Part shown: positions 18,602 through 40,311 of the stretch, in pieces
Layout of the letters: the number at the start of each line of letters is the position of its first letter
Numbering within the stretch: position 1 is the first letter of the stretch
Origin: an uncultured Thermoplasmatales archaeon
GTDB lineage: Archaea; Thermoplasmatota; E2; UBA202; JdFR-43
Direction of reading: 5' to 3'
Length of the DNA stretch: 47,370 bases
Assembly: GCA_964612535.1 (NCBI GenBank)
Contig: CAZTDS010000002.1
Location: 1,509 to 48,878 of the forward strand
Program-made: the position numbers and the translations under genes
Notes under the pieces: model-generated
Databases searched by the model: none
Told to the model about the DNA's origin: nothing
What the model saw: only the letters and a program-made list of their open reading frames with translations

Positions 18602-18701
18602 GATAGTCCTGCACGTTATATTTTTTGTGCAAATATTTATAAAGGGTAGTTAGATTAAGTATGACAGAAGTTATCTTTTGTCAAGATTATGGGGAGGTAA
18701 A

Positions 18702-20288
18702 ATGAGAAAAACTCTGGCATTAGCTATATGCTGGCTGTTATTTGTTTCTGCCATAACATTTGCTTCCGTAGATGTTAATGACAAAGAGAGTACATTTTCG
18801 CTTCAGTTGCCTGGAGAGCATTCAACACTGACAACTCATGATGGCTCAATTCGGGATGATGAACTCGCTAAATACATTGGTGAGCAGATACCCAAAAATG
18901 AGAAAGGAGAACCACAGGTTAAAGATGTGAAAATTTTCTTCAATAGCTGTTTCGGAGGAGGTATGCTCGACGATTTCCAGAAAATTTTCGGAAAAGGCGG
19001 CACATGCGAGGGAGTGCCTTGGATATTCGGCTCCGCCAGCAAGGAAGACGAGACGGCGAAAGGATGGAGTGACAGTACGGTGAAAAATCATCCTGATAAA
19101 AATCTTGGGAGTTGTTGGACAGACGCTCTTGCTGGAAAGCAGTGCAGTCCTACAGATGCTTCAAAAGGAGCTATACTTGACAGGACATCAGACAATGTAA
19201 AAGATGATTTAGAATGGGCTAAGGAGCATGATGATTCAGGTCCAAAACATGATAATCATGAGCATCCAGTAATTGCATATGGAAATGGAGGGGATAAGAT
19301 AAAATGGAATGGTGCGAAGAAACATCGTGCGGTTGTTTTTGGAGGGGATAACACAGATTTGAGGCATGATAATAACATTGAAAATGTTGGAAACGCTCTA
19401 ACCAAGATATGGAGTGGTGCTGAATATACCATCTATTATGGATGGGGGGATGAGACCACAGGCACAAAAAAATATTTGAAGAAAATAATAAAAGAAGTCT
19501 GTTCAGAGCTGGATAAAGATACTGAACTCGTTCTTTACTTTGATGATCATGGCGATACTGAATTTGATTTTGATGAGTTCATGGAATGGCTTTTACCTCA
19601 TTCATTTGTAAATGATACATCAATTACATTTAATTTGCATTCTGGATGGGTTAATGGTTTCACCGCCATGCAAAATCAGATGGATGAAATATCTCCTTAT
19701 CTACACATAAATTTAACTGGCTACATAATTGGAGAGGAATGGAATATTTATTTGAACGATGCCATTATAATGCTACCAGAAGGAAAGGTAGATGGAGAAT
19801 TAAAACTCAGTATTGACTGGAGGACTATAAGAGAGGGAGAAAATATTCTAACAATTTCTCCAGTAGGCGAGCCAACAATGCCTATGACAATAAACAATCT
19901 TGAATTATGCAGCGGACCAATAAATGAGGTTGAAAAGGATACTTCCGCATCGCCAGAAATCTCTATTATACATCCAGCAGATAGATATGTATATTTCTTT
20001 GGCTTGCCTGTCATACCATTTCCATCAGACTATGAGCCAGAAATGCATTTCAGCTTGATTATAGGCCCGGCATTTATCATGGCTAAAGCTTATAGCGATG
20101 TAGGTATAGAAAAGGTCGATTTTTATATTGATGAATCTCTGATACACTCGTCTAAGATTGCACCACACATATATTTTTGGAATCCTCCATCAGGAATGAG
20201 CTGGCACGAAATTAGAGTTGTGGCATATGCAAAGGATGGTGTCGTCTCGACAGATTCGAGAAGCATTGCCAGCATAGGCTTTGTGTAA
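18702..20288 (+). CDS. Secreted hypothetical protein with legumain/caspase-like His/Cys motifs and C-terminal Ig-like domain
   Basis: The track ORF starts at TTG 18678. ATG 18702 is preceded by GGGGAGGT and gives the signal peptide MRKTLALAICWLLFVSAITFASV. Motifs are TTHDGS...FFNSCFGGGM and HRAVVFGGDNTDLRHD...LVLYFDDHGDT. The C-terminus (VDFYIDESL...HEIRVVAYAKDG) looks like a bacterial Ig-like fold. Confidence 0.7.
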   Translation: MRKTLALAICWLLFVSAITFASVDVNDKESTFSLQLPGEHSTLTTHDGSIRDDELAKYIGEQIPKNEKGEPQVKDVKIFFNSCFGGGMLDDFQKIFGKGGTCEGVPWIFGSASKEDETAKGWSDSTVKNHPDKNLGSCWTDALAGKQCSPTDASKGAILDRTSDNVKDDLEWAKEHDDSGPKHDNHEHPVIAYGNGGDKIKWNGAKKHRAVVFGGDNTDLRHDNNIENVGNALTKIWSGAEYTIYYGWGDETTGTKKYLKKIIKEVCSELDKDTELVLYFDDHGDTEFDFDEFMEWLLPHSFVNDTSITFNLHSGWVNGFTAMQNQMDEISPYLHINLTGYIIGEEWNIYLNDAIIMLPEGKVDGELKLSIDWRTIREGENILTISPVGEPTMPMTINNLELCSGPINEVEKDTSASPEISIIHPADRYVYFFGLPVIPFPSDYEPEMHFSLIIGPAFIMAKAYSDVGIEKVDFYIDESLIHSSKIAPHIYFWNPPSGMSWHEIRVVAYAKDGVVSTDSRSIASIGFV

Positions 20289-20306
20289 ATAGAAACCCTC
20301 TTTCCC

Positions 20307-20323
20307 TTAATTTTTTAAAAAAT
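20307..20323. terminator. Possible bidirectional oligo-T terminator (TTAATTTTTTAAAAAAT)
   Basis: T6 immediately followed by A6, lying between two convergent genes (ends at 20288 and 20346). Confidence 0.35.
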
Positions 20324-20345
20324 ATGAATGGGAGGAGAAAAGGCG

Positions 20346-20642
20346 TTACTTTATGACGCTTCTGAGTACTCCCTTCGGATCCTTTGCAAACAATATAATT
20401 TCCCATATCAGCAATGCCACAATTATTAGCACTATTGAAAGGAGTATCGCATCTGTCGTTATTTCTATAAACTCGCCTCCTTCCATTAAATAGCCGATAA
20501 CGTGGTCAACGAATACCATGATTACTGTGCCCCACAGAATGAGGTTGAGCATCCCTATTTTATATGTTTCCCTTGCCTCATCGCTTATATACCATATTGC
20601 TGTGACAATAGCTGCCGCCAGAGTGGTTGCGATGAGCCACAT
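20346..20642 (-). CDS. Small 3-TM membrane protein (paralog B)
   Basis: 98-aa ORF with ATG start. TM2 motif KIGMLNLILWGTVIMVFVDHVI parallels the neighbouring gene. Confidence 0.6.
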   Translation of the reverse strand: MWLIATTLAAAIVTAIWYISDEARETYKIGMLNLILWGTVIMVFVDHVIGYLMEGGEFIEITTDAILLSIVLIIVALLIWEIILFAKDPKGVLRSVIK

Positions 20643-20649
20643 GTTATCT

Positions 20650-20997
20650 TTACACTCTGGCTACTTTCCTTACAGTTACCTTTTCCTTCAATGCAATCGT
20701 TACCGCAACCATGATTGCCCATACAAGGGTTATCACTATACTCATTGCTCCACCAACAATCGCCATTTCATGGAGCATTGCTGGAATATCTGCTGGATTG
20801 TTCATTGCTGTGAGAAAAGGTGGCCACGGCACAACTTCTCCATGCCATATGTGCTCGATGGCAAGCAAAAGCACGCCGCCCCACAGCATTGTGTTAAGCC
20901 AACCAAGTTTTAGCTTTTCAGCCCTTTCCTTTCCCACTGCCTTTTGCACAACTGTCGTTACAACCGCCTCAGCTCCCGGAACCAGAAAACACGCCAT
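20650..20997 (-). CDS. Small 3-TM membrane protein (paralog A)
   Basis: The track start is GTG 21006. ATG 20997 is preceded by GAGGTGGG. TM2 motif is KLGWLNTMLWGGVLLLAIEHIW. Confidence 0.6.
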   Translation of the reverse strand: MACFLVPGAEAVVTTVVQKAVGKERAEKLKLGWLNTMLWGGVLLLAIEHIWHGEVVPWPPFLTAMNNPADIPAMLHEMAIVGGAMSIVITLVWAIMVAVTIALKEKVTVRKVARV

Positions 20998-21128
20998 TTT
21001 TCCCACCTCGGTAGCAATTTTTTAATTTTGGTGTTACAGTAACGGCAAGAAATATAAAAAATTTTCGTAGATGGTAGATAGCAGGCAGCTTGCAGATAAA
21101 ATTATATCATCGTGAAAATATTAAATTC

Positions 21129-21977
21129 ATGAAAGTGCTGCCGTTATTTTCCGACTCTCTTGGCGTAAGATCAATGGCAACGATAGTTGAATTGAACGAA
21201 GAAAAAATTTTTATCGATGCCTCCGCTGCCCTGGGGCCATCTCGCTATGGGCTGCCGCCGCATCGCCTCGAAATAGAAGCGTTGCAGAATGCGAAGCGAC
21301 GGATAGCTGAGCTGGCAAAAGATTGCAATTACCATGTCATAACCCATTATCATTATGACCATCATGACCCGAATGAGAGTTTTTATGTTGGCAGGAAAAT
21401 TTTTGCAAAAAGGATAGATAGCCATATAAACAGGAGCCAGCAGGAGAGAGGAGCATATTTTAAGGAAGTTTTTGAGGATAAAGCGGAGATAATATACTGT
21501 GATGGTGAGGAGTATGAAATTGATGCCCATAAAATCAAATTTTCCCCTCCGTTTCCTCATGGGCCACATGGAATAAGGCTTGGATACGTCATAATGGTGA
21601 GTATAGAAAATAAGGAGAAAATGCTCTTTGCCTCAGATGTTCAGGGGCCGGTGTATGAGAAAGCAAAGGATTATATAATTGAGGAGATGCCGGATCTGCT
21701 CATAATGGATGGCCCGCCATCATATTTCCTCGGCTGGCGTTTTTCACAGGAAAATTTAGAAAAGGCGGAGAAAAATCTGATGGAAATCATGGAAAAAACT
21801 GATTGTATGCTCATCCTCGACCATCATTTGCTCAGGGACATAAAATACAAAGAGAGGATGAAAAACCTCTATGAGCAATATGGAGATAGAATAAAGACAT
21901 TTGCAGAGTGGAATGGAATGGAAAATAACATGCTTGAGGCAAGAAGGAATGAGTTATGGAGAGAATATGGAGAATAA
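21129..21977 (+). CDS. UPF0282-family metallo-beta-lactamase-fold protein
   Basis: The track start is TTG 21090; ATG 21129 gives MKVLPLFSDSLGVRSMATIVE.... The THYHYDHH histidine cluster is typical of the archaeal UPF0282/MBL-fold family. Confidence 0.75.
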   Translation: MKVLPLFSDSLGVRSMATIVELNEEKIFIDASAALGPSRYGLPPHRLEIEALQNAKRRIAELAKDCNYHVITHYHYDHHDPNESFYVGRKIFAKRIDSHINRSQQERGAYFKEVFEDKAEIIYCDGEEYEIDAHKIKFSPPFPHGPHGIRLGYVIMVSIENKEKMLFASDVQGPVYEKAKDYIIEEMPDLLIMDGPPSYFLGWRFSQENLEKAEKNLMEIMEKTDCMLILDHHLLRDIKYKERMKNLYEQYGDRIKTFAEWNGMENNMLEARRNELWREYGE

Positions 21978-22004
21978 ATGATTTTCAGATTCCAGTAGAG
22001 CGGA

Positions 22005-22829
22005 ATGTTCTTAAACGTTGAGCCATTAATTTTCCTGATGCAGGGTAGGACAAAATGCCCGTACTGTGGCAAAAACGTCGTTGTGGAAGTGCCTGACGGG
22101 GCAAGTGGAATACAGAAGACAAAATGCCCGAATTGCGGAATGACAATGAAAGTGGATGTGAGGGAGAGGGAAGATATTGAAGAAAGCCCTCTTCATCCAT
22201 TGGTTAAAAGAAAACCCTCAAAAATGCCGGTTATTGCGGGCATACTTCTTATAGTTGCGGCACTGCTCGGTATCTCAATGGGCGCCGCCCTCCTGTTTTC
22301 GGAAAACGAGGCGCTGCAGGGAAGCGGGATGTATGAAGGAATGGTAACAGATGGCGAAGGCAAACCGCTGGAAGGAGTGGAGATATATGTTGTTTCTGGC
22401 GGGAGTGTGGAAAAGGTGGCTGAAACAGATGAAAAGGGATATTTTCACATCGAGAACCTTTCTGCAGGGAAGCACAGGATAATGGTGAAAAAGGAAGGAT
22501 ATGTTACAAAAAATGTAACCATAGGAGTGTTTCCCTTCAAGAGTTTTTTGAAGGAAAAAATAGTGCTAAACAGTGGTGAGGGATGGGAGAATAAGAAGGC
22601 TCTATCTGCATGGGTTTTTGATATACTGCCTTTATTTTCTGCAGCAATAATTATTCTATCGATTCCTCCTCTTATTGGAGGGATATTTGCTCTGATGAAA
22701 AAATTTGAGATTGTTGCCATAATCGGCGCTATCTTTGGCATTTTTTCAATCGGCTTCATTATAGGAAGCATATTGAGCATAGTCGCTCTAATACTGCTTT
22801 TAATTTCAAAAGAGGAATTCAGGGCATGA
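22005..22829 (+). CDS. Membrane protein with N-terminal zinc ribbon and carboxypeptidase-regulatory-like (CarboxypepD_reg) beta-sandwich
   Basis: It has CPYCG...CPNCG, then a TM helix, then GMVTDGEGKPLEGVEIYVV...GYFHIENLSAGKHRIMVKKEGY, then about 3 C-terminal TM helices. The start is uncertain (22005 or 22038). Confidence 0.6.
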   Translation: MFLNVEPLIFLMQGRTKCPYCGKNVVVEVPDGASGIQKTKCPNCGMTMKVDVREREDIEESPLHPLVKRKPSKMPVIAGILLIVAALLGISMGAALLFSENEALQGSGMYEGMVTDGEGKPLEGVEIYVVSGGSVEKVAETDEKGYFHIENLSAGKHRIMVKKEGYVTKNVTIGVFPFKSFLKEKIVLNSGEGWENKKALSAWVFDILPLFSAAIIILSIPPLIGGIFALMKKFEIVAIIGAIFGIFSIGFIIGSILSIVALILLLISKEEFRA

Positions 22830-24948: not shown

Positions 24949-27900
24949 TCATTTGATGCTTTTCACCTCTTCATATATCTGCTGCAGCAACTCTACATAG
25001 TCTGCTTTTCCGCTTTCAACCATATCCATTTCCTCTTCTATTTTCCTCGTTCTCTCCTCGCTTACAAACTCGCCGTAATTTGATGCAAGAAAGCTGTATA
25101 TTTCTAAGCCCCTTTTCGTTGGTAAAAGGCGACCATTCTTTTCGACAACATAATTTCTCATGAAAAGTTTTTCGACTATAGTTGCATATGTGGAAGGTCT
25201 TCCAATGCCCTTTTCCTTCATTGTATGTATAACTTCAGATTGTGTAAATAGCGGTGATTTAGGCAGCATCTTTATTATCGCTCTTTTCCTGAATCTACCT
25301 TCTGGCAACTCTCTTTTTACAGCAACACTTCTGTAAAGCTCATATGCCTTCCCTTCCACCTTTACTACACGATTCTCCTCCATTTCCCTGCCGTCATACT
25401 TTATCCTGTATTTCCTCATTTCAACCTCAAAAGGCTTGCATTGACTTGCCATAAACCGGCGGAAAATTAAATCATATAGAGCCAGATGCTGCCATGTCAT
25501 TTCCTCAACCTGAATAACATTCTCCTGAATGAGGCGATGCAGCAGGTTTTTATCCCATGGGCGGGTGGGGCGGATGCACTCGTGGGCGCCGTGCTGCACT
25601 CCTTGGCGGGGATGAAAATGGGCGCCGAGAAATTCCCTTGCAATTTTAAGACCGGCATCGCTCACATATGCGGAATCTGTTCTATGATATGTTATTAAAC
25701 CGCTTTCGAATAAATCCTGCAGGAGTTTCATTGTTTTATTGGCAGGAATCTTAAGAATGGAATTGGCATCGCGAAGCACCTCATCTGTTGTATAGGGCGG
25801 CAGCGGGTTCTTCATTTCTTTCTTTGCTTCAATGAGTTTTATTTCGATATCAACCTCTCCTTTTTCAATTCCCTCCAGCATGAGGCCGAAATCGGGGATT
25901 ATGCCAACTTTCCTCTTTTCTTTATGCTCCTCAGCCCTCTTTATAATCCAGCCGAGCACGGGAGTTTGAGCTCTTCCTGCGGAGAGATTCCTGTTATTGA
26001 AAACCTCCCAGAGTTTTTGACTCAAACAAAAGCCAATCCATCTGTCTTCTATCCTCCTTACAATCTGTGCTTTAACAAGATTCTCATCTATCTCTCTCAA
26101 ATTTTTCATGGCTTTTTTTATGGCTACAGGTGTTATTTCATGGAATTCAGCCCTCTTTATTTCCCCGCATCCAGCAAGTAAATTCGCGATGTCCCATGCT
26201 ATTTTCTCTCCTTCCGCATCTGGATCAGTGCCTATTATTATATTTCCTGCTTCATATGCAATTTTTCTCAAAGCCTCTATTCTTTCCCTTGCATCATTTA
26301 TGTTCTTGCTTCCACATCTCAGGCATTCTTTTCTTTCCTCCGTGAATTGATATCCGCAATCTGCGCATTTTTTAATGGAGGCGTATATTGGTATGAATTT
26401 TCCATTCACCTCCACCCCATGAAATGCTTCGCCAGTAATCAAATCGGTTAGATGACCGAGGCTTGCTGTTATAAGGAGAATATGATCCTCGCTCGCCACT
26501 TCATATACTATTGAGTTGCCAACTGCTTTTATACTTGGTTTTCCGAAGAAGCGGGCAATCTGTTTTGCTTTTGTTGGGCTCTCAACAACAAAAAGAGATG
26601 GCTTTATCAAATCCTCCTCCTTCCTTCCTCTAATTTTCCTGCTTTCCTCCACTTCCTTCATTGCCTTTTCAATGTCAATTTCATCCATTCCTTTAAACTC
26701 TATATCATAGTAGCTTGCCCTTCGCCTGAATGCATTGAGCAATTCCTCATCATCCTCAAAAAGAAATGAAAGCCCTTTTGTTATGCCCCCCGCCAGCAGG
26801 CGGGAGGTTCTTCCCGAGCCTTGAATGTATGTCCTTATATCCGGCAAAATAATTTCTCCCTGCCGCAAAACAAAATCTTCTTCCTTTCCTATTCCCTCCT
26901 CCATTATAATTTTTATCTTTTCCTTCAGTTCCTGAAATTCCCCCCTTTTTTCTATTGTTGGAAGGAGAGGAATGAATTTTTTTATCTCTTCCCTCTCCCT
27001 GAGCAAACTTGCAATAAATTTTATCATATTTGGGCTTAAGGAATCAATATCCTCGATTCTTATTCTTATGGCAGGCGCACCTATGAAAATGGCATATTTT
27101 ATCTCTTTTGGCAAATCTATACCTCTTATCAATGCTCCATAATAATAGGCTGTGCCTATGAGAAAATCAATCTTGCCCTCTTTAAAATCCTGAAAAGCTT
27201 TTTTGCTTTTTGCTGTTACAAGCCCTATCTTAAAATCATCCTTTAATTTTTCATGCCATTCCTCCGCCTCCTCGCTGCTCCTCGCATATATTATTCCCCC
27301 GCTTCCCAGCTTTTTGAGCAAATTTTTAATTGTTTCGTGGCTTTCATCATTTATATAAATATCATCGATGTTCCTTATGGCAAAATGAGATGAGCCAACA
27401 TCAAAGTTCAGGAGGCGGCGAAATAGCTCTGCTTTCCTGCCTTTTTTAGCTGTTGCTGTTGAAACCATCAGAACCCCCTTTGCTTTTCCCTTCCAGCCAT
27501 TTTCGAAATAAAAGCCGAGAAGATTCAGAATTCGATCCACATTTTTTGATGCCTTTAATATGGCATCCACATCATCAACAAAAATGAAATCAAAGGTGAA
27601 GTTGCTTAATTTATCGAAATGTTTTGCGAGAAACTGGGTTGTGGTAATCAGCACATCAAACTCTCCTTTCTGCAATTTTTCAAAAAACTCCTCCTTGTTT
27701 TTTATATTTCCGTGATAAAAAAGAACCTCTGCTTTCCTGCCTGTTCTTTCCTTTATTTTCTCCGCCGCCTCCGCTGCCTGCTGCACAAGGAGGGTTGTTG
27801 GAAATAGAATGTAACTCTTCTTTCCCTTGCCAGCAAGGAACAAAGCCATTGCTATGCCAAATGAACTCTTCCCTATACCAGTGGGCGCAACCGCAGCAAA

Positions 27901-28119
27901 ACTTTCGTTTCTTAGCACCCTCTTCGCCCAGAATATCTGCAAGGCTCTTGCCTTCCCTATGGCTTTTTCGAAGAAATCAAGAAATTCTTTTGTTGCCTCC
28001 TCCTCTTTAAAATAGCAGAGTGGTTTTTTTGTTATGCTGCATTTCTTTGCCTCAATTTCTGATGTTTTTAGCTCTCCATGACATATATGGCAGAGGTTGG
28101 CATATTTTGCCTCAATCAT
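24949..28119 (-). CDS. rgy: Reverse gyrase
   Basis: 1056-aa ORF. It has an N-terminal zinc finger (CHICHG), an SF2 helicase domain (APTGIGKSS, DDVD), and a type IA topoisomerase Toprim/catalytic part (LFVVESPTKAKQI, GTDPDAEGE, ITYHRTDS). Confidence 0.97.
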   Translation of the reverse strand: MIEAKYANLCHICHGELKTSEIEAKKCSITKKPLCYFKEEEATKEFLDFFEKAIGKARALQIFWAKRVLRNESFAAVAPTGIGKSSFGIAMALFLAGKGKKSYILFPTTLLVQQAAEAAEKIKERTGRKAEVLFYHGNIKNKEEFFEKLQKGEFDVLITTTQFLAKHFDKLSNFTFDFIFVDDVDAILKASKNVDRILNLLGFYFENGWKGKAKGVLMVSTATAKKGRKAELFRRLLNFDVGSSHFAIRNIDDIYINDESHETIKNLLKKLGSGGIIYARSSEEAEEWHEKLKDDFKIGLVTAKSKKAFQDFKEGKIDFLIGTAYYYGALIRGIDLPKEIKYAIFIGAPAIRIRIEDIDSLSPNMIKFIASLLREREEIKKFIPLLPTIEKRGEFQELKEKIKIIMEEGIGKEEDFVLRQGEIILPDIRTYIQGSGRTSRLLAGGITKGLSFLFEDDEELLNAFRRRASYYDIEFKGMDEIDIEKAMKEVEESRKIRGRKEEDLIKPSLFVVESPTKAKQIARFFGKPSIKAVGNSIVYEVASEDHILLITASLGHLTDLITGEAFHGVEVNGKFIPIYASIKKCADCGYQFTEERKECLRCGSKNINDARERIEALRKIAYEAGNIIIGTDPDAEGEKIAWDIANLLAGCGEIKRAEFHEITPVAIKKAMKNLREIDENLVKAQIVRRIEDRWIGFCLSQKLWEVFNNRNLSAGRAQTPVLGWIIKRAEEHKEKRKVGIIPDFGLMLEGIEKGEVDIEIKLIEAKKEMKNPLPPYTTDEVLRDANSILKIPANKTMKLLQDLFESGLITYHRTDSAYVSDAGLKIAREFLGAHFHPRQGVQHGAHECIRPTRPWDKNLLHRLIQENVIQVEEMTWQHLALYDLIFRRFMASQCKPFEVEMRKYRIKYDGREMEENRVVKVEGKAYELYRSVAVKRELPEGRFRKRAIIKMLPKSPLFTQSEVIHTMKEKGIGRPSTYATIVEKLFMRNYVVEKNGRLLPTKRGLEIYSFLASNYGEFVSEERTRKIEEEMDMVESGKADYVELLQQIYEEVKSIK

Positions 28120-28708
28120 GCAATCTTTCCTTTATTTTATGGAGCAGTTCTGCAGGGTTTTTAACTGGATACTCTATTGCCTCAAGTATTTCCTTCGCAT
28201 CCCTGCCCATTATGCTCATTCCCTTTAGCCTTTCCATCAACGCCTCCTTTTCTGCCGGGAAATCCATGCCTTTTATTGCAGCCAGCACATGCACCGCCCA
28301 GTCTATGCCTAACGCCTCCGCTTCCTCTTTCTTCAATTCAATTTTGTCCAGCTCTCCACGCTGCTTTAATGCTCGATAGGCCAGCTTTGCTATTCCCCCC
28401 GCTATGTGTTCATTTGGCCTCTCTCCACCCTCCATGATATAATTTTTTACCTTTTCTTCGTCGGCTGTTGCAATATTTTTGGCAGTTTGCTCTGTTATGC
28501 CAAGCATTCTTGCTATCTCGCCATATGTTTTCACTGCCTCATTTTTGAGCACTACAACATAGGCAGCTTCTGCCAGCGATGGAAGCCATGTTAAATTGCG
28601 ATATTCAACGAGTTTTTTCAGCCCACCGAGAATCCTTATGCTCTCCATAAACACCTTTTCAGCCATTTCATCAACATTTCCACCCATTGGCTTGGATATT
28701 ATCTCCAT
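28112..28708 (-). CDS. HTH-domain protein (predicted transcriptional regulator) paired with KaiC-like ATPase
   Basis: 198-aa ORF with a helix-turn-helix (KTYGEIARMLGITEQTAKNIA). It starts 6 nt after the KaiC-like stop, and its stop overlaps the rgy start (ATGATTGA). Confidence 0.6.
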   Translation of the reverse strand: MEIISKPMGGNVDEMAEKVFMESIRILGGLKKLVEYRNLTWLPSLAEAAYVVVLKNEAVKTYGEIARMLGITEQTAKNIATADEEKVKNYIMEGGERPNEHIAGGIAKLAYRALKQRGELDKIELKKEEAEALGIDWAVHVLAAIKGMDFPAEKEALMERLKGMSIMGRDAKEILEAIEYPVKNPAELLHKIKERLHD

Positions 28709-28714
28709 TTTTCA

Positions 28715-29572
28715 TCACCTCCTTATATATTCTGAAAGCGGAGCTATTATTTCAACTGTTCCAGCATCAGTAATTTCAAATACCCATGTTCTCGTATCAT
28801 GTCCGCTGAGCCTGCAACCATCGATCCTTATGAAGCGTATAACATCACCTATATCCTTCTTATAAAGACTCGCCTCCCTCTGACTCATTATGAGTTTTTT
28901 ATCGACAACAATCGTTCCATCGACAATATGCGCCACAGCCAGCCCGCCCGCCGCCTCGACGCTCTCGCTCGCCTGAGCAGAGCGTTTTTGGGAGATGAAC
29001 AGTCCGGTCTGTCGCCATTTTTTGAGGAAATTGAAGAACTGCCTGACAATCTGGCGAGCCATCATTTCCTTATGTTCATATAAGCCAGTAATGCTGTCTA
29101 TGATAACGTTGGTTATTTTCTTTTCCTTTATGGCATATGCCATTGTTTCCATCAGTGCCTTTGGATTTTCTCTCAGTTCTTCCTCCTCGGAAGCATCTAT
29201 TACGACGATGTTCTTCTCTGCTTCATCAAAATCCAAGCCTAAAGCTTTGCATTTTTCACGAATTGCAGAATACAGGAAATTTGCAGGACTTTCAACTGTT
29301 ACAAACAAAACTTTATATCCTTTCGCCGCCTGATAGGCAGCAAACTGCTCAGCAAATAAACTTTTACCTGTGTCAGGAATGCCGGAAATGTTGAATATGG
29401 AAAGATATGGCAAACCGCCGAGTGGCTTTTTAACGAATTTACCATTTTCTTCTTCAAGCTTGTAAAACATTTCATCAAGCTTTGTACCTGTTGGAATGCC
29501 AAATAACTTTGGCGCCCTTTCAGCAAGCTCTCCCAGCTCGTAAAAACTAAATCTTTTTTCCTCACTCATCAT
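28715..29572 (-). CDS. Single-domain KaiC/RecA-superfamily ATPase
   Basis: 285-aa ORF with Walker A GIPDTGKS, Walker B NVIIDSITG, and overall archaeal KaiC-like (COG0467-type) organisation. Confidence 0.8.
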   Translation of the reverse strand: MMSEEKRFSFYELGELAERAPKLFGIPTGTKLDEMFYKLEEENGKFVKKPLGGLPYLSIFNISGIPDTGKSLFAEQFAAYQAAKGYKVLFVTVESPANFLYSAIREKCKALGLDFDEAEKNIVVIDASEEEELRENPKALMETMAYAIKEKKITNVIIDSITGLYEHKEMMARQIVRQFFNFLKKWRQTGLFISQKRSAQASESVEAAGGLAVAHIVDGTIVVDKKLIMSQREASLYKKDIGDVIRFIRIDGCRLSGHDTRTWVFEITDAGTVEIIAPLSEYIRR

Positions 29573-29641
29573 ATAATAATGTGTTTATTGTTGTATAAAT
29601 AGATTTCGCAAATTTTAAAAATCCATGCTAAGATATAACAC

Positions 29642-30361
29642 ATGGCAAGATGGATGGCACTTGCCATTACATCCATCTTACTCATTAATTTTACTCCAGC
29701 AGAAAATAAAAGCGGGGAGGCAATAAGGGTTGAGGTAGGTATCGATGGCATTCCTCCATTAATTCAACCATTGGCAAAGGTGAAGAATATTGGGAGCGAG
29801 CCGATAGAGCATTTGGAATGGTATGTTGTAGTAACCTCCTTCCTGCCCAGATACACTGGCACATGCCGCGGCTCCTTTTCATTGCAAATTGGGGAGGAAA
29901 AAACGATAAGATGTCCATATTTTCCTGCCATTTTTGGTCCTCTTACAATAGAATTTGTGGTGAACTGTGGGTATAAAAAATGTCCAGTGATTAAAACATT
30001 GAAGTTTTTCGTTCTTCCTCCTATAATGTTCGGTGGCGAAATTGAACATCCTGAAATATGCTTTGATGGAGAACTTCAGGAAGAAAATGGAACGAAAAAA
30101 GCATATGTTATAGTGACTTATGTGGAAGAAGGGGTATATTATAATGCGAATGCTTCAACACCAAATATTGCCTTCATCGATGCTTTCTCTGGCGAAGAGT
30201 ACTATGTTGGGGAGAATTTGCAGCTGACTGAGGAAAAAAACAATTTATATACAGAGCCAGTAAAAGTCGGAGATAAAATAGAAGTGCAGATATATCCTCC
30301 GATGCTTGTTAAATGGCTTCCAACAGGAGCAACTATAACAAAGGTGGAGTGGTTCTGGTAA
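29642..30361 (+). CDS. Secreted hypothetical protein (CARDB-like beta-sandwich suspected)
   Basis: 239-aa ORF with an N-terminal hydrophobic signal (WMALAITSILLINF). VKNIGSEPIEHLEWYVVV resembles CARDB-type adhesion domains. No firm family call. Confidence 0.55.
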   Translation: MARWMALAITSILLINFTPAENKSGEAIRVEVGIDGIPPLIQPLAKVKNIGSEPIEHLEWYVVVTSFLPRYTGTCRGSFSLQIGEEKTIRCPYFPAIFGPLTIEFVVNCGYKKCPVIKTLKFFVLPPIMFGGEIEHPEICFDGELQEENGTKKAYVIVTYVEEGVYYNANASTPNIAFIDAFSGEEYYVGENLQLTEEKNNLYTEPVKVGDKIEVQIYPPMLVKWLPTGATITKVEWFW

Positions 30362-35634: not shown

Positions 35635-36825
35635 TTTTTCCGCAATGATAGCCTTTCCCCCCACTTTAAATATATAGTACCTTCTTTCACCTTTTAATCC
35701 ATCCTCTATTCTATTCCTCACCTTCCAATATTCTTTTGGTTCAATTGAGAAGCGAGGTGTTGCCTTTCCCGCATGGCATTTCTTTAAAACCCTGTTGATT
35801 GTATCTATTTCAAACTTGCAGCTCTCCACCACTTTATATGCTCTAAGAAAAGATGAAATGTATTTATTTTCTGATGACAGCAGAGTTCTTCTTTCCTCAA
35901 AATGAAGCAGGAAGCCGTCAAAGCCAATCTTTCCTGCAAGATTTTTCAGCAAACCAGCTTTTATTATGGTTCTATCTACCTCATATATATAATCAGCAAC
36001 CTCACTTTTTTCCTCAATCTCAACCTCATCATCCTCATCTGTAACTCTTTCCTCGCTTGGAAGAGATACAGCAGATATGTTGCAGGAAGCAAAAGCCCTC
36101 GTATATAACGCAAGGCGATTTAAATCAAAATTTAGCGATGTATATTCCTTCTCCCCTTCAATTTTTATTTCCTCTCTCCTCATTTGGGGCGGGAGTTCAA
36201 AAGCAATTCTATCCGTTTTTTTCTGATACAGTTCATAAACTTTCATTGGATTCGGGAGAAGAGTTTCAAAAGTTCTTTTTTTCTCCTCGGGTTTTCGAGA
36301 AGGATCGCAAAAAATGGAGTTAGCGTATATTTTATTAAAAATCTCCGTGCTAAGCGCATCTCCTTCCATTATCTCAAAATTTTCGGCACCAAAAACCATT
36401 AAATTCAGTTCAGCCATTTTTGCTCTATCCTTGTCTATCTCCACCCCAATAACTTTATCTGCATATTTTGAAAAATACATGAGCTGCATGCCAACACCGC
36501 AGCATATATCTGCCGCTATCCCTCCTCCAATCCTCTTTGCTCGATATTCAGCCACCTCCGGCGGCGTGGCATAGCGGAGGGCTTCTTCATCAAAAAAGAG
36601 ATATGATGCCATTTCTCCAAATTTTTTCCTTGCCCTTATCCTGCATTTTGCCATTTCAAAAATTTTTTCCTTGCTGAAGAACTTTGCCTTAATCTTTTTT
36701 AATATAAAATCTCTGTGGAAACCCTGTTTTATTAAATCAACCGCCTCACTCACTTCTTCATCCACTTCTTCAAGCATTTTCAACATATTGTCGAAGCCAT
36801 ATGTAAAATTTTTGAGAATGAACAT
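35629..36825 (-). CDS. SAM-dependent methyltransferase (TGS1/RNA guanine-N2 MTase-like core with THUMP-like C-terminal region)
   Basis: 398-aa ORF with SAM motif I (IAADICCGVGMQ) and the FCDPSR post-motif. The C-terminal roughly 150 aa is of unknown specificity. Confidence 0.65.
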   Translation of the reverse strand: MFILKNFTYGFDNMLKMLEEVDEEVSEAVDLIKQGFHRDFILKKIKAKFFSKEKIFEMAKCRIRARKKFGEMASYLFFDEEALRYATPPEVAEYRAKRIGGGIAADICCGVGMQLMYFSKYADKVIGVEIDKDRAKMAELNLMVFGAENFEIMEGDALSTEIFNKIYANSIFCDPSRKPEEKKRTFETLLPNPMKVYELYQKKTDRIAFELPPQMRREEIKIEGEKEYTSLNFDLNRLALYTRAFASCNISAVSLPSEERVTDEDDEVEIEEKSEVADYIYEVDRTIIKAGLLKNLAGKIGFDGFLLHFEERRTLLSSENKYISSFLRAYKVVESCKFEIDTINRVLKKCHAGKATPRFSIEPKEYWKVRNRIEDGLKGERRYYIFKVGGKAIIAEKL

Positions 36826-36979
36826 GCACTATGCGAAAAATTTATAAACCCAGATTACACCCCTCCCTTCATTTATAAATAAGGAGATAATATAATCTCA
36901 AGTTAAAGCCGCATGTAAATAAAGCGCCCTAAGATGGGCACATGCGGTTGCATCCCCTCCCTCTGTTATATTGTATTAA

Positions 36980-36994
36980 TCATTCACAAGTTTT
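36980..36994 (+). promoter_or_regulatory. Motif TCATTCACAAGTTTT, copy 1 (upstream of the response regulator gene, abutting a TTTTAAATA TATA-like box)
   Basis: Exact 15-nt match to 37779-37793. It lies 52-66 nt upstream of ATG 37046. Confidence 0.5.
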
Positions 36995-37045
36995 AAATAG
37001 GAGCTACATGTTTAATTCAAATTTCATTTTAAACATGAGGAAATA

Positions 37046-37726
37046 ATGAAAAAAGAATCAACAACGATATTGTATATAGAGGATGATCCCGAGGCGTTTT
37101 TACTGTTGGAAATAATTTTGGAAAGGTATGTAAAGCAAAAAATTAAGCTTATCTGGGCATCTAATGGAAAGGATGCTATTAAAATAATTGAAAGAGAGGA
37201 GATACATCTCATATTGATAGATTTTTTTCTTCCAGATATATGCGGACTCGATTTAATGGATAAAATAAGAGGGAAAGGGATTACAGCCCCTATTGTTATG
37301 ATAACAGGAAATGGAAATGAAAAAATAGCTGCGGATGCTTTTAAGAAAGGAGTGATCGATTATATTGTAAAAGGTGAAGATAACATTAATGAATTAGGAA
37401 ATCGATTTTCCTCCTATATCCATTTTGCTTCATGGATTTCCAATGTAAAAGATTTATCAGATGATTTTGATCATCTCTGTAAGAAAAGAGATGCATTATC
37501 AATCTTAACAAAAATACTAGAGTGTTCCGCAGGAGGAGCAAAGAAAAGCCATATTCTATATAGAGCGAATCTTAATTCGGTAACAATTAAAAAATATATA
37601 TGGTATGCAATTAAAAATGGCTATCTCCAATGGAGAAGAAAAGGAAGGGAAGGAATATTTTTTACCACTATGAAAGGTATGGAACTTATATCAAAGGTAA
37701 ATAAACTCAGAGAAATTTTGATTTGA
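37046..37726 (+). CDS. Response regulator: CheY-like receiver plus C-terminal winged-helix DNA-binding domain
   Basis: REC residues are intact (EDD, LILIDFFLPD, MITG, KKG). The C-terminal ILTKILECSAGGAKKSHILYRANLNSVTIKKYIWYAIKNGYL resembles the archaeal COG3432/HTH_45-type wHTH. Confidence 0.8.
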   Translation: MKKESTTILYIEDDPEAFLLLEIILERYVKQKIKLIWASNGKDAIKIIEREEIHLILIDFFLPDICGLDLMDKIRGKGITAPIVMITGNGNEKIAADAFKKGVIDYIVKGEDNINELGNRFSSYIHFASWISNVKDLSDDFDHLCKKRDALSILTKILECSAGGAKKSHILYRANLNSVTIKKYIWYAIKNGYLQWRRKGREGIFFTTMKGMELISKVNKLREILI

Positions 37727-37778
37727 ATTCTCTTTAGCCTTCTATATTTAAAAATTGCGTATCTCCAATTGGTATGTG

Positions 37779-37793
37779 TCATTCACAAGTTTT
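37779..37793 (+). promoter_or_regulatory. Motif TCATTCACAAGTTTT, copy 2 (upstream of the TasA-like operon)
   Basis: Exact 15-nt repeat of 36980-36994. It lies 86-100 nt upstream of ATG 37879. Confidence 0.5.
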
Positions 37794-37836
37794 TTTCATG
37801 CACCCCCAATATGTCATCATCAACGGCTTGGGCGGA

Positions 37837-37849
37837 ATTTAAAAATTGC
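37837..37849 (+). promoter_or_regulatory. TATA-like element ATTTAAAAATTGC for the TasA-like operon
   Basis: It lies about 30-42 nt upstream of ATG 37879, with the GAGGTG SD at 37869-37874. The same 13-mer also occurs at 37746-37758. This copy is bracketed by the inverted repeat CTTGGG (37827-32) / CCCAAG (37853-58). Confidence 0.4.
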
Positions 37850-37878
37850 CTACCCAAGGGGCGAGAAAGAGGTGAAAA

Positions 37879-38616
37879 ATGAATAGAAAAATAAAAAGTA
37901 TATTGGGAAGTATTTTGGTAATAGCGATGGTAACTGCTATGCTGACGGTAGGAACAAAATCTTTTTTTAGCGATTTAGAAGTAAGCACGGGCAATACATT
38001 TACAGCAGGAACAATAGATCTAAAAATAGATTGCAATAGCAAATGGTATGATGCAGCTGGCAACGAGAAAGGCTCCATATATTTTGATGAAAAGGACTTG
38101 ATTGCCGGAGAAGATAAATTCTTTAACTGGGATGATATAAAGCCTGGAGATCACGGAGAAGCGACAATTAGCATACATGTATATGATAATGATGCATGGG
38201 GATGGTTACATTTAATTGACGTGAAAAATGATGAAAATGGATTGATGGAGCCAGAAATAGCAGCGGGAGATAATACAACGGATGAAGGAGAAATGAACAA
38301 ATATCTACAGTTTATGATATGGAGAGATTGGGGAGAAGATAGAATTCCCGGAACAAATGATGAAGGCGAAGGAGACAACATTTTACAGGACACTGAAGAA
38401 ATAGTTTTTAAGGGAACTGCAGCCGATTTAGCACGTTATGAATGCAACTGGTTAGGACCCTATGAATTAAAAGCGTGCGTAACATACTATTTTGGAATTG
38501 CGTGGCAACTTCCTTTCAATACAGGGAATATTGTTCAGAGTGACTCTTTTTCATTCGGCATAGAGTTTTATGTAGAGCAGATAGCAAATAATCCAAATCC
38601 CCAGCCACCAAGCTAG
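37879..38616 (+). CDS. TasA/camelysin (peptidase M73)-like secreted protein with SipW-type signal peptide, paralog 1
   Basis: The N-terminus KIKSILGSILVIAMVTAMLTVGTKSFFSDLEVSTGNTFTAGTIDL matches the SipW-dependent signal class (FSD...N.F.AGT.DL). The family-typical DIKPGD and C-terminal GNIVQSDSFSFGIEFYVEQ are present. Confidence 0.82.
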   Translation: MNRKIKSILGSILVIAMVTAMLTVGTKSFFSDLEVSTGNTFTAGTIDLKIDCNSKWYDAAGNEKGSIYFDEKDLIAGEDKFFNWDDIKPGDHGEATISIHVYDNDAWGWLHLIDVKNDENGLMEPEIAAGDNTTDEGEMNKYLQFMIWRDWGEDRIPGTNDEGEGDNILQDTEEIVFKGTAADLARYECNWLGPYELKACVTYYFGIAWQLPFNTGNIVQSDSFSFGIEFYVEQIANNPNPQPPS

Positions 38617-38625
38617 AGTGAGATA

Positions 38626-39705
38626 ATGGACAAAAGAATAAGGAGTATATTAGGGAGTATTATCGTAATTGCAGTAATCGCGGGGGTAACGGGCATAGGG
38701 ACAAACTCCTTTTTCAGTGATACAGAAACGAGTAAAGAAAACACATTTGTAGCAGGGATAATAGACCTTAGTGTAAATGGCAATAATCCAATTGAAGAAG
38801 CGATCGTTACTATTGAAGATATGAAGCCATGTAGAATCTTCTATGTGGAGAAGATACTCCATATATACGGTAATCATGCCGACTTATGGATGCATATAAA
38901 AAATATAATAAGCAGTCAAGGGGTTCAGACAGAACCAGAAAGTGAAGAAGAAAGTTTAATGGGGACAGCAGCCAATGGGAAATGGGATATTGAAAACTAT
39001 ATAACATATGATTTAAAGATTGGTTGGGACAAAAATGGAGATGGAAGGATCGCAGACGATGAATATACAATCATATTTTATCCAGAAGACCATATAAAAT
39101 TTGGTTGGATAGAATGTGCATGGATCTCTCTTGGTTTTGATTTGCCATCCTCGGTAGATATAATTGTAAACCAAAGCTTTCATATGCAGGCTGATGTCAC
39201 AAATTGGGCCCAGGGAGATATTTGCGAATTTACAGAGGAGTTTCTGGCTACTCAAGTGAATTCGCCTTCTCCAAATAACATCCTGCTGAGATTAGAAAAT
39301 AAAGATGAAAACTTCAACATAGTTTATAATGATGGTATATGGGCTCTACTTTCATATAATCCATCTGGCTCTACTTTCGATTATGAGCTTGTGGCCCACT
39401 GTCTGCAATCAAATACCAGCTACAGCCTAATTTATTACGCAGATCCCTATCCAGGTGATCATCCTGGAGCACTTCTTGGCACCTTTACAACTGATGCAAC
39501 AGGTATGATCCATCCAACAACAGGCTCTGTTGAAATAAACATGGATCTTCCGCATACGAGCGATGCCAACTATCCGAGCGGCGCCAAAATATGGCTTGTT
39601 CCATCGAGCGATTATGATGCTGTAAATCACAAGATAATAGGATGGTCCCCTACCGAATATCTATTTGAACACAATCTCATAACATATGATGATACAGATG
39701 TGTAA
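38626..39705 (+). CDS. TasA/camelysin-like secreted protein, paralog 2, with extra roughly 150-aa C-terminal domain
   Basis: The N-terminus RIRSILGSIIVIAVIAGVTGIGTNSFFSDTETSKENTFVAGIIDL is clearly paralogous to the upstream gene. DMKPC and AQGDICEFTEEFLATQ close the TasA-like domain at about residue 210. Residues 211-359 are an unrelated domain. Confidence 0.8.
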   Translation: MDKRIRSILGSIIVIAVIAGVTGIGTNSFFSDTETSKENTFVAGIIDLSVNGNNPIEEAIVTIEDMKPCRIFYVEKILHIYGNHADLWMHIKNIISSQGVQTEPESEEESLMGTAANGKWDIENYITYDLKIGWDKNGDGRIADDEYTIIFYPEDHIKFGWIECAWISLGFDLPSSVDIIVNQSFHMQADVTNWAQGDICEFTEEFLATQVNSPSPNNILLRLENKDENFNIVYNDGIWALLSYNPSGSTFDYELVAHCLQSNTSYSLIYYADPYPGDHPGALLGTFTTDATGMIHPTTGSVEINMDLPHTSDANYPSGAKIWLVPSSDYDAVNHKIIGWSPTEYLFEHNLITYDDTDV

Positions 39706-39741
39706 CAAATCTTTCCCTCTTTTTTTATTTTTGGAGTAGCA

Positions 39742-40311
39742 ATGGTGAAAAAAATGTATAGGAATAACATCCTCAACATATTGCTTGTTGTAACAGCTAT
39801 ACTTTTCATTTTATCTTTTGTTCTTCTTCCCATTATCGATAGTTCTTCACACTGGTATGTTGTAACCTCAGGTTCTATGGAACCGGTTTTGAAAACAGGA
39901 GATGTTCTATATATTTCTAAGGTAGATGCTGATAAAATAAAAGCAGGAGAAATAATTACCTTCTATTCAAATGATAGAAAGATTACGATTACTCACAGAT
40001 GCATAGAAGTTTTGCATCAAGATAATAAAACATTTTTTAGAACAAAAGGGGATGCAAATGAAAATAATGTTACTTTCTTGGTTCCACAGAATGCTTTAGT
40101 TGGAAGAGTTCCAAATGCCAAAATATTTGGGCATGCTATATATGCAAAAATACCTCGTCTCGGATACCTATCCTATTTTATACACACAAAAATCGGCTTT
40201 TTCTTGCTCATTCTTCTCCCAGGATATTTATTAATAGGCATGGAGACATACAATATATTCAATATTTTACAAGAGGATAAAAAAGACGAGAAAAAATCGG
40301 ACTCACTTTAA
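39742..40311 (+). CDS. Signal peptidase I, archaeal/ER (SipW-like, S26B) type
   Basis: 189-aa ORF with an N-terminal TM, catalytic-Ser box VVTSGSMEPVL, His box ITHRCIEV, TKGDANE box, and a C-terminal TM anchor as in SipW. Confidence 0.85.
   Translation: MVKKMYRNNILNILLVVTAILFILSFVLLPIIDSSSHWYVVTSGSMEPVLKTGDVLYISKVDADKIKAGEIITFYSNDRKITITHRCIEVLHQDNKTFFRTKGDANENNVTFLVPQNALVGRVPNAKIFGHAIYAKIPRLGYLSYFIHTKIGFFLLILLPGYLLIGMETYNIFNILQEDKKDEKKSDSL

Follow-up and report, generated by a model that had tools for sequence, protein, structure and literature searches.

The stretch of DNA analysed here (the window; 47,370 nt of contig CAZTDS010000002.1) comes from a Thermoplasmata archaeon of hydrothermal sediment and contains four consecutive, co-oriented genes for a response regulator (RR), two TasA-like secreted proteins and a signal peptidase. 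The locus is read here, with a probability of roughly 0.62, as a compact secretion-and-assembly module for an extracellular TasA-superfamily fibre that is controlled by the adjacent orphan RR. An earlier note on the same sequence had called the four genes at the coordinates below; the open reading frames (ORFs) match exactly, all on the plus strand, curated profile libraries concur with the family it named for each gene, and the sequence confirms the lengths of 9 and 36 nt that it gave for the spacers between the last three.

37046-37726, plus strand: gene 1, response regulator, 226 aa; receiver (REC) domain at residues ~8-112, C-terminal winged helix (HTH_45/Sso10a-like) at ~147-224
37879-38616, plus strand: gene 2, TasA-like protein 1, 245 aa; single beta-sandwich core
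38626-39705, plus strand: gene 3, TasA-like protein 2, 359 aa; TasA domain and C-terminal beta domain
39742-40311, plus strand: gene 4, archaeal/endoplasmic reticulum (ER)-type (SipW-like) signal peptidase I, 189 aa

Membership of genes 2 and 3 in the TasA superfamily is supported by profile matches, signal-peptide class, fold ranking and genomic context. Both proteins pass the cut-offs of Peptidase_M73 PF12389 (25.7 bits for gene 2 and 33.6 bits for gene 3, against 22.5) and of the SipW-dependent signal peptide model TIGR04088 (21.7 and 26.0 bits against 19), and the gene 3 ortholog of the related locus L008 covers positions 9-191 of the 196 in the M73 profile. Full-length homologs number 403 for gene 2 and 550 for gene 3; most carry PF12389 and several are named 'TasA family protein' by NCBI. 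The two genes are paralogous (BLASTP E 9e-22), and profiles of their families, each aligned from 76 homologs, match at an hhalign probability of 100% (E 1.4e-39, 202 columns), so that the description of the pair as paralogous secreted proteins with SipW-class signal peptides holds good. AlphaFold models built from the 76-sequence alignments reached predicted local distance difference test scores (pLDDT) of 88 for gene 2 and 87 for gene 3 (predicted template modelling score 0.81 for the latter). The top Foldseek match in the PDB was the TasA fibre 8aur_A for both gene 2 (E 5.5e-4, probability 0.99) and gene 3 (E 2.3e-4, probability 1.00), which bears out the proposed TasA/camelysin fold; later filament matches were AbpA (7ueg), a Sulfolobus thread (7pnb) and the CfaB pilin for gene 2, while the structure of CanA was among the matches of gene 3.

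The elements through which TasA polymerises are the best preserved. Gene 2 has a SipW-type signal peptide at residues 1-28. In its product cleavage is predicted to follow T-K-S28, and in that of gene 3 T-N-S28, leaving F-F-S-D-x-E, because the sequences align there with the mature start of TasA, A28-F-N-D. The donor strand of TasA comprises residues 28-38, of which F29 and I32, together with F39, are buried in neighbouring subunits (PMC9674648). Here F30, L33 and F41 align with TasA F29, I32 and F39, and F29-F-S-D with A28-F-N-D; the donor-strand-like N-terminus of gene 2 reads FFSDLEVSTGNTF, D32 and E34 are invariant across both paralog families, and the N-terminal motif quoted in the earlier note is found in both proteins. 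Residues 23/24-41, between signal helix and first core strand, form the only segment with a pLDDT below 50 in both models. At the other end of the fold, the C-terminal strand motif that had been proposed is real, but its spacing was given one residue short: the true form is Q-x-D-x-x-x-F-x-x-x-F-x-x-x-Q (Q220/D222/F226/F230/Q234 and Q196/D198/F202/F206/Q210), and its Q, D and Q are invariant across the 76 homologs of each paralog. Both mature proteins are strongly acidic, with an isoelectric point (pI) of 4.05 and 19% Asp+Glu for gene 2 and 4.20 and 16% for gene 3. The gene 3 protein has the same signal peptide and donor motif, and its TasA domain extends to about residue 214; an extra, conserved beta domain of 145 residues (215-359, nt 39268-39705) follows, which the model packs confidently on the TasA domain and which in other proteins is also fused to DUF11 surface repeats. 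Gene 3 ends in LITYDDTDV, and a conserved LIxYDDTD tail (window 39676-39705) is present in 38 of the 76 homologs. This tail resembles the start of the donor strand, F-S-D-T-E, and might fill a groove or a Ca2+ site.

Gene 4 scores 102.3 bits on the archaeal signal peptidase I model TIGR02228 (cut-off 51.85) and 96.1 bits on the Bacillus SipW equivalog NF046067, under the cut-off of 190; on the latter score it is an enzyme of the SipW type and not a SipW ortholog. S45 (in SGSMEP), H85 (in THR) and D104 (in GDANE) are invariant in six orthologs and presumably correspond to Ser47, His87 and Asp106 of SipW. The prediction of an S26B-type peptidase with Ser and His boxes is thus upheld, as is that of a C-terminal anchor, there being one hydrophobic (transmembrane) segment at each end. 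The gene overlaps a convergent epimerase gene by 9 nt, and its product does without the C-terminal Zn-ribbon tail present in relatives. In 43 of 47 genome loci the TasA-like gene has a gene for a homologous peptidase no more than a few kb away.

Co-transcription of genes 2 and 3 is nearly certain on the sequence, and their 9-nt spacer holds a weak Shine-Dalgarno sequence. The longer spacer before gene 4 contains one further feature:

39720-39732, plus strand: oligo-T tract TTTTTTTATTTTT (T7AT5), in the 36-nt spacer between the gene 3 stop codon and the Shine-Dalgarno sequence of the peptidase gene

Oligo-T tracts serve as terminators in archaea, and this one, which is followed by GGAG, is possibly a partial terminator. 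Since the spacer carries the T7AT5 tract, co-transcription of the peptidase gene may be attenuated, with expression through partial read-through. The regulator gene has a putative promoter of its own. Bacterial sigma-70 and intrinsic-terminator scans of the locus were dropped as uninformative for an archaeon.

Gene 1 is predicted to join a REC domain competent for phosphorylation to an HTH_45 winged helix. It matches Response_reg PF00072 with 70.3 bits (E 1.9e-19) and HTH_45 PF14947 with 55.1 bits (E 7.5e-15; cut-off 25.5), while the winged helix scores 57 bits on the Sso10a chromatin-protein model (Sso10a_fam), slightly below its cut-off of 60. D13, D59, T87 and K109 are invariant in nine orthologs and D14 is replaced by E in one, in agreement with the claim of a receiver with all phospho-acceptor residues and a winged-helix output. 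The output domain is not of the OmpR/PhoB, NarL or NtrC kind, as those equivalog models hit the receiver only and far below their cut-offs. The statement that no histidine kinase is encoded in the 47 kb also stood: HisKA and HATPase domains were not found in the ~44 window ORFs scanned, six of which have no Pfam match at all. Close full-length relatives of the RR are few, with only eight clusters in a word-indexed search of 5.8 billion proteins and about six clusters with a full-length, single-stretch match in an exhaustive HMMER pass over 1.84 billion representative proteins. Archaeal DNA-binding response regulators are rare (PMC5847659), as the earlier note had said, and Thermoplasmata are nearly devoid of two-component genes, with three kinases and four regulators in 11 genomes (PMC5847659). 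The Galperin census of archaeal regulator architectures (PMC5847659) has no REC-HTH_45 entry in its tables.

The gene for the RR is directly upstream of, and co-oriented with, TasA-like genes in every close ortholog context retrieved. There are eight such distinct loci (window/L007, L008, L054, L058, L180, L181, L182 and L183), whose neighbouring flank genes differ where the flanks are visible, and the same arrangement is seen in a paralogous module, L184. The RR accompanies a TasA-like gene only in the archaeal subset of the 47 genome loci, and the link between regulator and fibre is lineage-specific. Two promoters can be proposed in the window:

36980-36999, plus strand: putative RR promoter; TCATTCACAAG box (TTCACAA at 36983-36989), then TATA-like TTTTAAATA at 36991-36999, 47 nt before the ATG
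37779-37797, plus strand: putative fibre-gene promoter; TCATTCACAAGTTTT repeated exactly, leading into a T-rich TATA-like box

The shared TCATTCACAAGTTTT is a 15-nt exact repeat upstream of the RR gene (36980-36994) and of the first fibre gene (37779-37793). The pattern TCRTTCACAAR has two matches in the 47 kb, against 0.15 expected, and both are at these two promoters; the three other TTCACAA heptamers of the window lie within coding regions. In the 11.6 kb of L008 TCGTTCACAAA occurs at both promoter positions and nowhere else, so the two copies have been altered in concert. Across loci the RR promoter follows the pattern TTCA[C/T]AA-N2-3-TTTAAATA/TTAAATA in all seven orthologs where it is visible, and the fibre promoter follows TTC[A/G]CAA-N1-5 and then a T-rich box in 8/8 orthologous loci. 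Because the box directly precedes a TATA-like box across loci, TTCACAA is placed at the position proximal to the transcription factor B (TFB) recognition element (BRE) of two promoters of archaeal type. The simplest reading of these sequences is that TTCACAA is a shared candidate operator for the adjacent RR, through which it would control both its own gene and its target. At L184 the fibre promoter has the form TTCACAT-N4-TATTTAAAT, the leader is different and the RR promoter has no box. A ATTTAAAAATTGC repeat (37746, 37837) was considered as the TATA box of the fibre gene and rejected, since cross-locus comparison shows the second copy to be the variable apex of a hairpin. With adjacency kept in eight loci and in L184, and a motif common to the RR and fibre promoters, the link to the regulator is stronger than the earlier note could know.

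It is nevertheless conceivable, if improbable, that the RR is a mere neighbour, and that TTCACAA is a lineage-specific BRE or the site of a TFB paralog or of the second REC protein that relatives encode. The box is found exactly where a BRE would be, 1-5 nt before the TATA-like box, binding of the RR to it is predicted from sequence, and L184 has only the TTCACAT variant at its fibre promoter and none at its RR promoter; in addition, the protein that follows a more distant RR family member with 34% identity (L185) is 948 aa long and not TasA-like. Against a chance neighbourhood stands the retention of gene adjacency and orientation in eight loci and L184 with differing flanks, and against a general promoter element the fact that the other three TTCACAA sites in 47 kb are intragenic. 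Furthermore, the RR and fibre boxes co-vary between genomes, and such regulators most often combine autoregulation with control of a divergent or neighbouring target. As for the distant relative itself (L185 406-4395), the protein that follows it gives weak DUF4957/GH43-related hits, and the RR family may control other secreted proteins as well.

Transcription from the fibre promoter is predicted to begin near 37815-37822. A second conserved non-coding element lies between the fibre promoter and gene 2:

37822-37862, plus strand: conserved leader AACGGCTTGGGCGG...GCCTACCCAAGGGGC; stem of 37827-37832 with 37853-37858, and two inner pairs
37869-37875, plus strand: Shine-Dalgarno sequence GAGGTGA, 3' of the leader element and before gene 2

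The consensus AACGGCCCAGGCGG ... GCCYACCTGGG..GGC, followed by a Shine-Dalgarno sequence, is present 5' of the first TasA-like gene in 8/8 loci, ~25-35 nt 3' of the T-rich box of the fibre promoter. RNAalifold gives a stem of 6+2 bp, which is CTTGGG/CCCAAG in the window lineage and CCCAGG/CCTGGG in the others, a difference of three compensatory pairs; one further pair varies, being G·U or G·C. In the alignment 98.6% of cells are paired (at most 67% in slid controls), and the observed covariation is attained by only one shuffle in 500. Both the length (12-24 nt) and the sequence of the apical part are variable, and for this reason a hairpin is favoured over a dimeric operator of fixed spacing. 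The element is taken as a 5'-leader structure of the structural mRNA, and a cautious guess at its role would be stabilisation of that mRNA. The idea of an exceptionally stable RNA was discarded (z about 0), and it is conservation and compensatory changes that speak for the structure. Rfam held no credible match at E values up to 10, and among the matches listed (at least 120) in a metagenome scan with the leader pattern, apparently chance ones, new loci had no downstream TasA-like ORF or upstream TTCACAA.

Comparison with relatives shows that the window copy, described earlier as a major-subunit-like gene and an extended paralog behind a regulator, is a reduced version of a larger conserved module. 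In L008, L054, L182, L183 and others the order is RR, one or two TasA-like genes, a protein of ~335 aa (termed X), a peptidase bearing a Zn-ribbon tail (CxxC...CxxC) at its cytoplasmic C-terminus and a ~197-aa second REC protein with a beta-rich N-terminal domain and a C-terminal receiver. Sub-threshold similarity of that N-terminal domain to PF04014 (AbrB/MazE-like, E 0.009) had no PDB support, and an AbrB/SpoVT assignment stands as a weak suggestion only. X, the peptidase tail and the second REC protein, all kept by L008, L054, L182, L183 and L184, are lacking in the window locus and L007, and tblastn did not find them elsewhere in the 47 kb. The positions of the additional genes are as follows:

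X: L054 3631-4644; L008 6806-7837; L182 9479-10474; L183 2036-3076
X: L181 9260-10255; L058 2862-4028; L184 1613-2230
Tailed peptidase and second REC protein: L008 7821-9238; L054 4703-6045; L182 10503-11799; L183 3231-4474

X passes the M73 cut-off (23.6 bits) and in 6/6 cases has two copies, and no more, of the donor-strand motif, one behind the signal peptide and the other at the extreme C-terminus (examples of the motif are GLSDTETSMGNTIIAGG, GFYDVEKSLDNSI and GLSDTETSMGNTI). It looks like a natural self-complemented subunit, able to donate a strand without needing one, which suggests a nucleator or cap with a role analogous to that of TapA. L184 (206-4012; contig JAGHBD010000060.1) is a second, complete module on a separate contig of the metagenome-assembled genome (MAG) AUK247. 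Its RR has 43% identity to gene 1 and is accompanied by a TasA-like protein of 195 aa, a small X, a Zn-ribbon-tailed peptidase, a 197-aa second REC protein and a 131-aa CheY-like protein. The window locus itself recurs at 98% protein identity in that MAG ('Thermoplasmata archaeon isolate AUK247', GCA_021161135.1, L007), as found in a genome-collection scan with a 12-sequence alignment that also returned relatives in two further archaeal MAGs. As the complete L184 module belongs to a MAG of such identity, the organism of the window probably has two fibre systems.

Beyond these archaea, the gene 2 subfamily, marked by an HVYDNDAW motif, has 3 archaeal and 44 bacterial species representatives (the bacterial loci being L010-L053). 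The bacterial loci are mostly of Patescibacteria/Candidate Phyla Radiation, show 30-44% full-length identity and nearly all have an adjacent SipW-like peptidase, a pattern that suggests inter-domain transfer of a TasA/peptidase cassette. Several archaeal variants were also seen. A 516-aa ORF of L182 (7861-9411) has two tandem TasA-like units, each starting MIGASTVSWLSDEEKS, and is either a real fusion or an assembly artefact. At L056 5348-7000 and L057 3903-5504, in a locus with three TasA-like genes and no RR, the 550-aa protein encoded downstream resembles the peptidase at its N-terminus only (31% identity) and may be a large multi-transmembrane signal peptidase of the AbpX type. The more distant Thermoplasmatales locus L009 (3994-8213) has four genes, whose products are a 621-aa protein with SipW-type signal, DUF11 and VWA domains, a TasA-like one, a peptidase that carries its Zn ribbon at the N-terminus and a receiver standing alone; it thus has a REC link without the winged-helix regulator, the TTCACAA box or the leader.

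From these elements we infer a scheme that covers precursor cleavage, fibre assembly, phosphorylation, DNA binding and leader function. The peptidase would cut both precursors after T-K-S28 and T-N-S28, exposing F-F-S-D-x-E, in which position 2 is aromatic and position 4 acidic, as in the A-F-N-D of TasA. The freed N-terminal strand would then insert into the groove of the next subunit by donor-strand complementation to form a fibre, and the invariant acidic residues may render this insertion Ca2+-assisted. The 245-aa protein is likely to be the bulk subunit, and the 359-aa protein, with its extra surface domain, a minor, tip or adhesive subunit. The RR would be phosphorylated by an unlinked kinase or a small phosphodonor and would bind the TTCACAA box at its own promoter and that of the fibre genes, setting fibre production and autoregulation by either activation or repression. 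Most plausibly the leader hairpin stabilises or tunes an abundant structural mRNA, while the T-tract before the peptidase gene would lower expression of the peptidase relative to the subunits.

A number of observations weigh against this scheme. The M73 matches of the window proteins span residues 9-52 and 10-70 only and are driven by the signal peptide and first strand, while the TM-scores of the Foldseek matches are low (0.30-0.43), to which the signal helix and the extended strand, kept in the models, contribute. No TasA was found in PDB sequence searches with either protein or with the family profiles (the single match, a designed TPR protein, was spurious). Against a mature TasA sequence reconstructed as identical to chain 8aur_A, the gene 3 family reached an hhalign probability of 41% (E 2.7e-4) over 178 collinear columns and the gene 2 family aligned over the last strand only, at 15%; both proteins are evidently distant from Bacillus subtilis TasA. 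On the regulatory side, the position of TTCACAA at the BRE means that a TFB variant or another factor could read the box, and HisKA and HATPase_c domains were likewise missing from the genes called in related loci. A single lineage accounts for all three compensatory changes in the leader, and in single-sequence folding the leader is no more stable than shuffled sequences. Finally, since X, the second REC protein and the Zn-ribbon tail are missing, the window locus may rely on L184, the second module of the sibling MAG, or have decayed in part.

The weak similarity of the bodies of genes 2 and 3 to TasA leaves some room, though very little, for the view that these M73-family proteins are secreted monomers, either metalloproteases of the camelysin type or soluble calcium-binding adhesins, which the peptidase merely matures. 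The Pfam M73 family takes its name from the metallo-endopeptidase camelysin, TasA itself is stable as a monomer (PMC9674648), and H100 and many acidic residues are invariant in the gene 2 family and could form a metal site. However, this single invariant His is not conserved in the gene 3 family, and a protease reading was rejected as neither protein has an HExxH or other recognised catalytic motif. The residues most conserved in both families are instead the D/E of the donor strand and the last strand, which are the polymerisation elements of TasA, the best structural matches are polymerised donor-strand filaments, and the second, C-terminal donor-strand motif of X in relatives makes sense only for strand complementation.

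Least likely of all is that the window locus is a decaying remnant whose fibre is no longer built after loss of X, the second REC protein and the peptidase tail: three components retained in five other loci are indeed lacking from the window and L007, and the sibling MAG has a complete second module, but the four window ORFs are all intact, with catalytic and phospho-acceptor residues conserved, the leader and the two promoter boxes are still there, gene 2 recurs with an identical protein sequence on six metagenome contigs from different samples, and AbpX-type relatives polymerise without an accessory factor (bioRxiv 10.64898/2026.01.04.697558).

The preferred reading, a secreted fibre module under an adjacent regulator, can be extended tentatively, and with considerable doubt, to a self-contained, phosphorylation-controlled switch for a biofilm fibre in a small lineage of hydrothermal-sediment Thermoplasmata, built on a TasA/SipW cassette shared with Patescibacteria. 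In such a switch the RR would read TTCACAA, the leader would tune the mRNA and the self-complemented X, its groove occupied by the C-terminal copy of its own donor strand, would nucleate or cap the fibre, with the second REC protein and the CheY-like protein added in full versions. In the reduced locus of the window the 359-aa paralog, with its YDDTD tail, may fill the role of X.

The remainder of the window is in keeping with the host. Reverse gyrase is encoded at 24949-28119 (helicase and topoisomerase IA domains), and there are an archaeal ribosomal-protein operon and genes for diphthamide synthase and a CTP-dependent riboflavin kinase; given the reverse gyrase and the archaeal gene content, the earlier label of 'thermophilic archaeon' is fair. 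A KaiC-like ATPase gene (28715-29572) adjoins the reverse gyrase gene. Sizeable ORFs without a Pfam match (536, 131, 295, 198 and 239 aa) lie within 18678-22829 and 28112-30361, regions that also encode one 274-aa protein with a CarboxypepD_reg domain. Downstream of the locus, the epimerase and Sm_multidrug_ex genes are syntenic between the window and L008. G+C content is 35-38% over 36001-40000, 44% just upstream and 38-40% downstream, and so mild a dip is by itself no evidence of recent acquisition.

TasA fibres and archaeal bundling pili assemble by donor-strand exchange or complementation (PMC9674648, PMC9245690), and the premise of the earlier note that TasA homologues form such pili in archaea is sound. 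The nearest model is the tapA-sipW-tasA operon of B. subtilis (8AUR; PMC9674648, PMC10151520), with which the locus shares a jelly-roll/beta-sandwich subunit with a SipW-class signal, an ER-type Ser/His peptidase encoded alongside, a second secreted protein bearing the same donor motif, a donor strand whose mature position 2 is aromatic and position 4 Asp, and a Q-x-(D/N)...F...Q last strand. It differs in its archaeal host, in gene order, in having no TapA homolog, in place of which relatives have X, and in its adjacent REC-winged-helix protein, where the Bacillus operon is regulated by SinR/AbrB. The bodies of the subunits are only marginally similar to TasA (hhalign probability 15-41%) and the peptidase falls under the SipW equivalog cut-off.

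AbpA/AbpB of Pyrobaculum calidifontis (7UEG; PMC9245690) likewise belong to the TasA superfamily and to an archaeal thermophile, and AbpA was the second-best structure match of gene 2 (E 4.2e-3). AbpA is, however, much more diverged from TasA and restricted to Thermoproteales/Thermofilales, and its operon has no dedicated signal peptidase or RR (PMC9245690). Wang et al. described PF12389 proteins nearer to bacterial TasA as patchily distributed in Euryarchaeota-derived phyla and Patescibacteria and predicted a role in biofilms (PMC9245690); the window proteins belong to this archaeal group, closer to bacterial TasA, as listed there. AbpX-type proteins, from Pyrodictium abyssi and others, are Ca2+-dependent, with a pI of about 4, position 2 being aromatic and position 4 acidic (bioRxiv 10.64898/2026.01.04.697558). 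The window proteins share the pI of about 4, the ~15-19% Asp/Glu and, at the predicted cleavage site, the aromatic-2/acidic-4 donor strand, a likeness that concerns described features and not the AbpX sequence. AbpX-type loci contain minor subunits, signal peptidase I and occasional transcription factors, and their bacterial versions are tied to two-component or Spo0A-like regulators (bioRxiv 10.64898/2026.01.04.697558); no REC-HTH_45 regulator is described there, and the AbpX-associated peptidase has ten transmembrane helices, whereas gene 4, of 189 aa, has two.

The haloarchaeal Tafi locus (PMC12337348) also encodes a donor-strand bundling pilus, with TafE as pilin, TafD as signal peptidase and TafB as putative regulator. 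Unlike the window locus it relies mostly on twin-arginine translocation (Tat)-dependent secretion, has a DUF5305 accessory protein (TafG) and only distantly related pilins, and TafB is not described as a response regulator, which gene 1 is. Among regulators, FilR1 of Methanosaeta and LtrR of Methanococcoides (PMC5847659) are REC plus (winged) helix-turn-helix (wHTH) transcription factors of Euryarchaeota; these have the order HTH-REC or wHTH-DUF1724-REC and known partner kinases, while gene 1 is REC-HTH_45 with no kinase gene nearby.

The locus had been called uncharacterised. This is true experimentally, and Sleutel et al. (2026 preprint) state that none of the archaeal TasA-like proteins has been characterised (bioRxiv 10.64898/2026.01.04.697558). 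From bioinformatics, however, TasA-like loci of archaea that encode signal peptidase I and, now and then, transcription factors were already on record (PMC9245690; bioRxiv 10.64898/2026.01.04.697558), and TasA-superfamily loci are often accompanied by signal peptidase I and minor or tip subunits, with occasional transcription factors (Sleutel et al.; bioRxiv 10.64898/2026.01.04.697558). The fibre and peptidase module is therefore of a known type and it is the two-component-type wiring that is new: the literature searched contained no conserved REC-HTH_45 coupling, shared promoter box, leader element or doubly-stranded X.

Little is understood of the matrix of archaeal biofilms. Archaeal proteins close to bacterial TasA have had no experimental study, and how any archaeal donor-strand fibre is regulated is not known. 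In outline the locus is not surprising, but it is an unusually compact and testable handle on both the regulation and the initiation of archaeal matrix fibres. It represents a minimal four-gene thermophile system in which a defined candidate operator (TTCACAA), a protein of rare architecture as candidate regulator and the conserved leader are all open to testing with recombinant proteins and short DNA or RNA probes, without culture. Patescibacteria encode closely akin proteins, which suggests that matrix-fibre cassettes have been exchanged between domains, and the likely natural self-complemented cap X bears on how chaperone-free donor-strand polymers are initiated. If the phosphorylation-controlled switch is real, it would be the first archaeal signal-transduction circuit for matrix-fibre production, and X would be a natural instance of a device, the 'self-complemented subunit', that in structural biology is engineered by hand.

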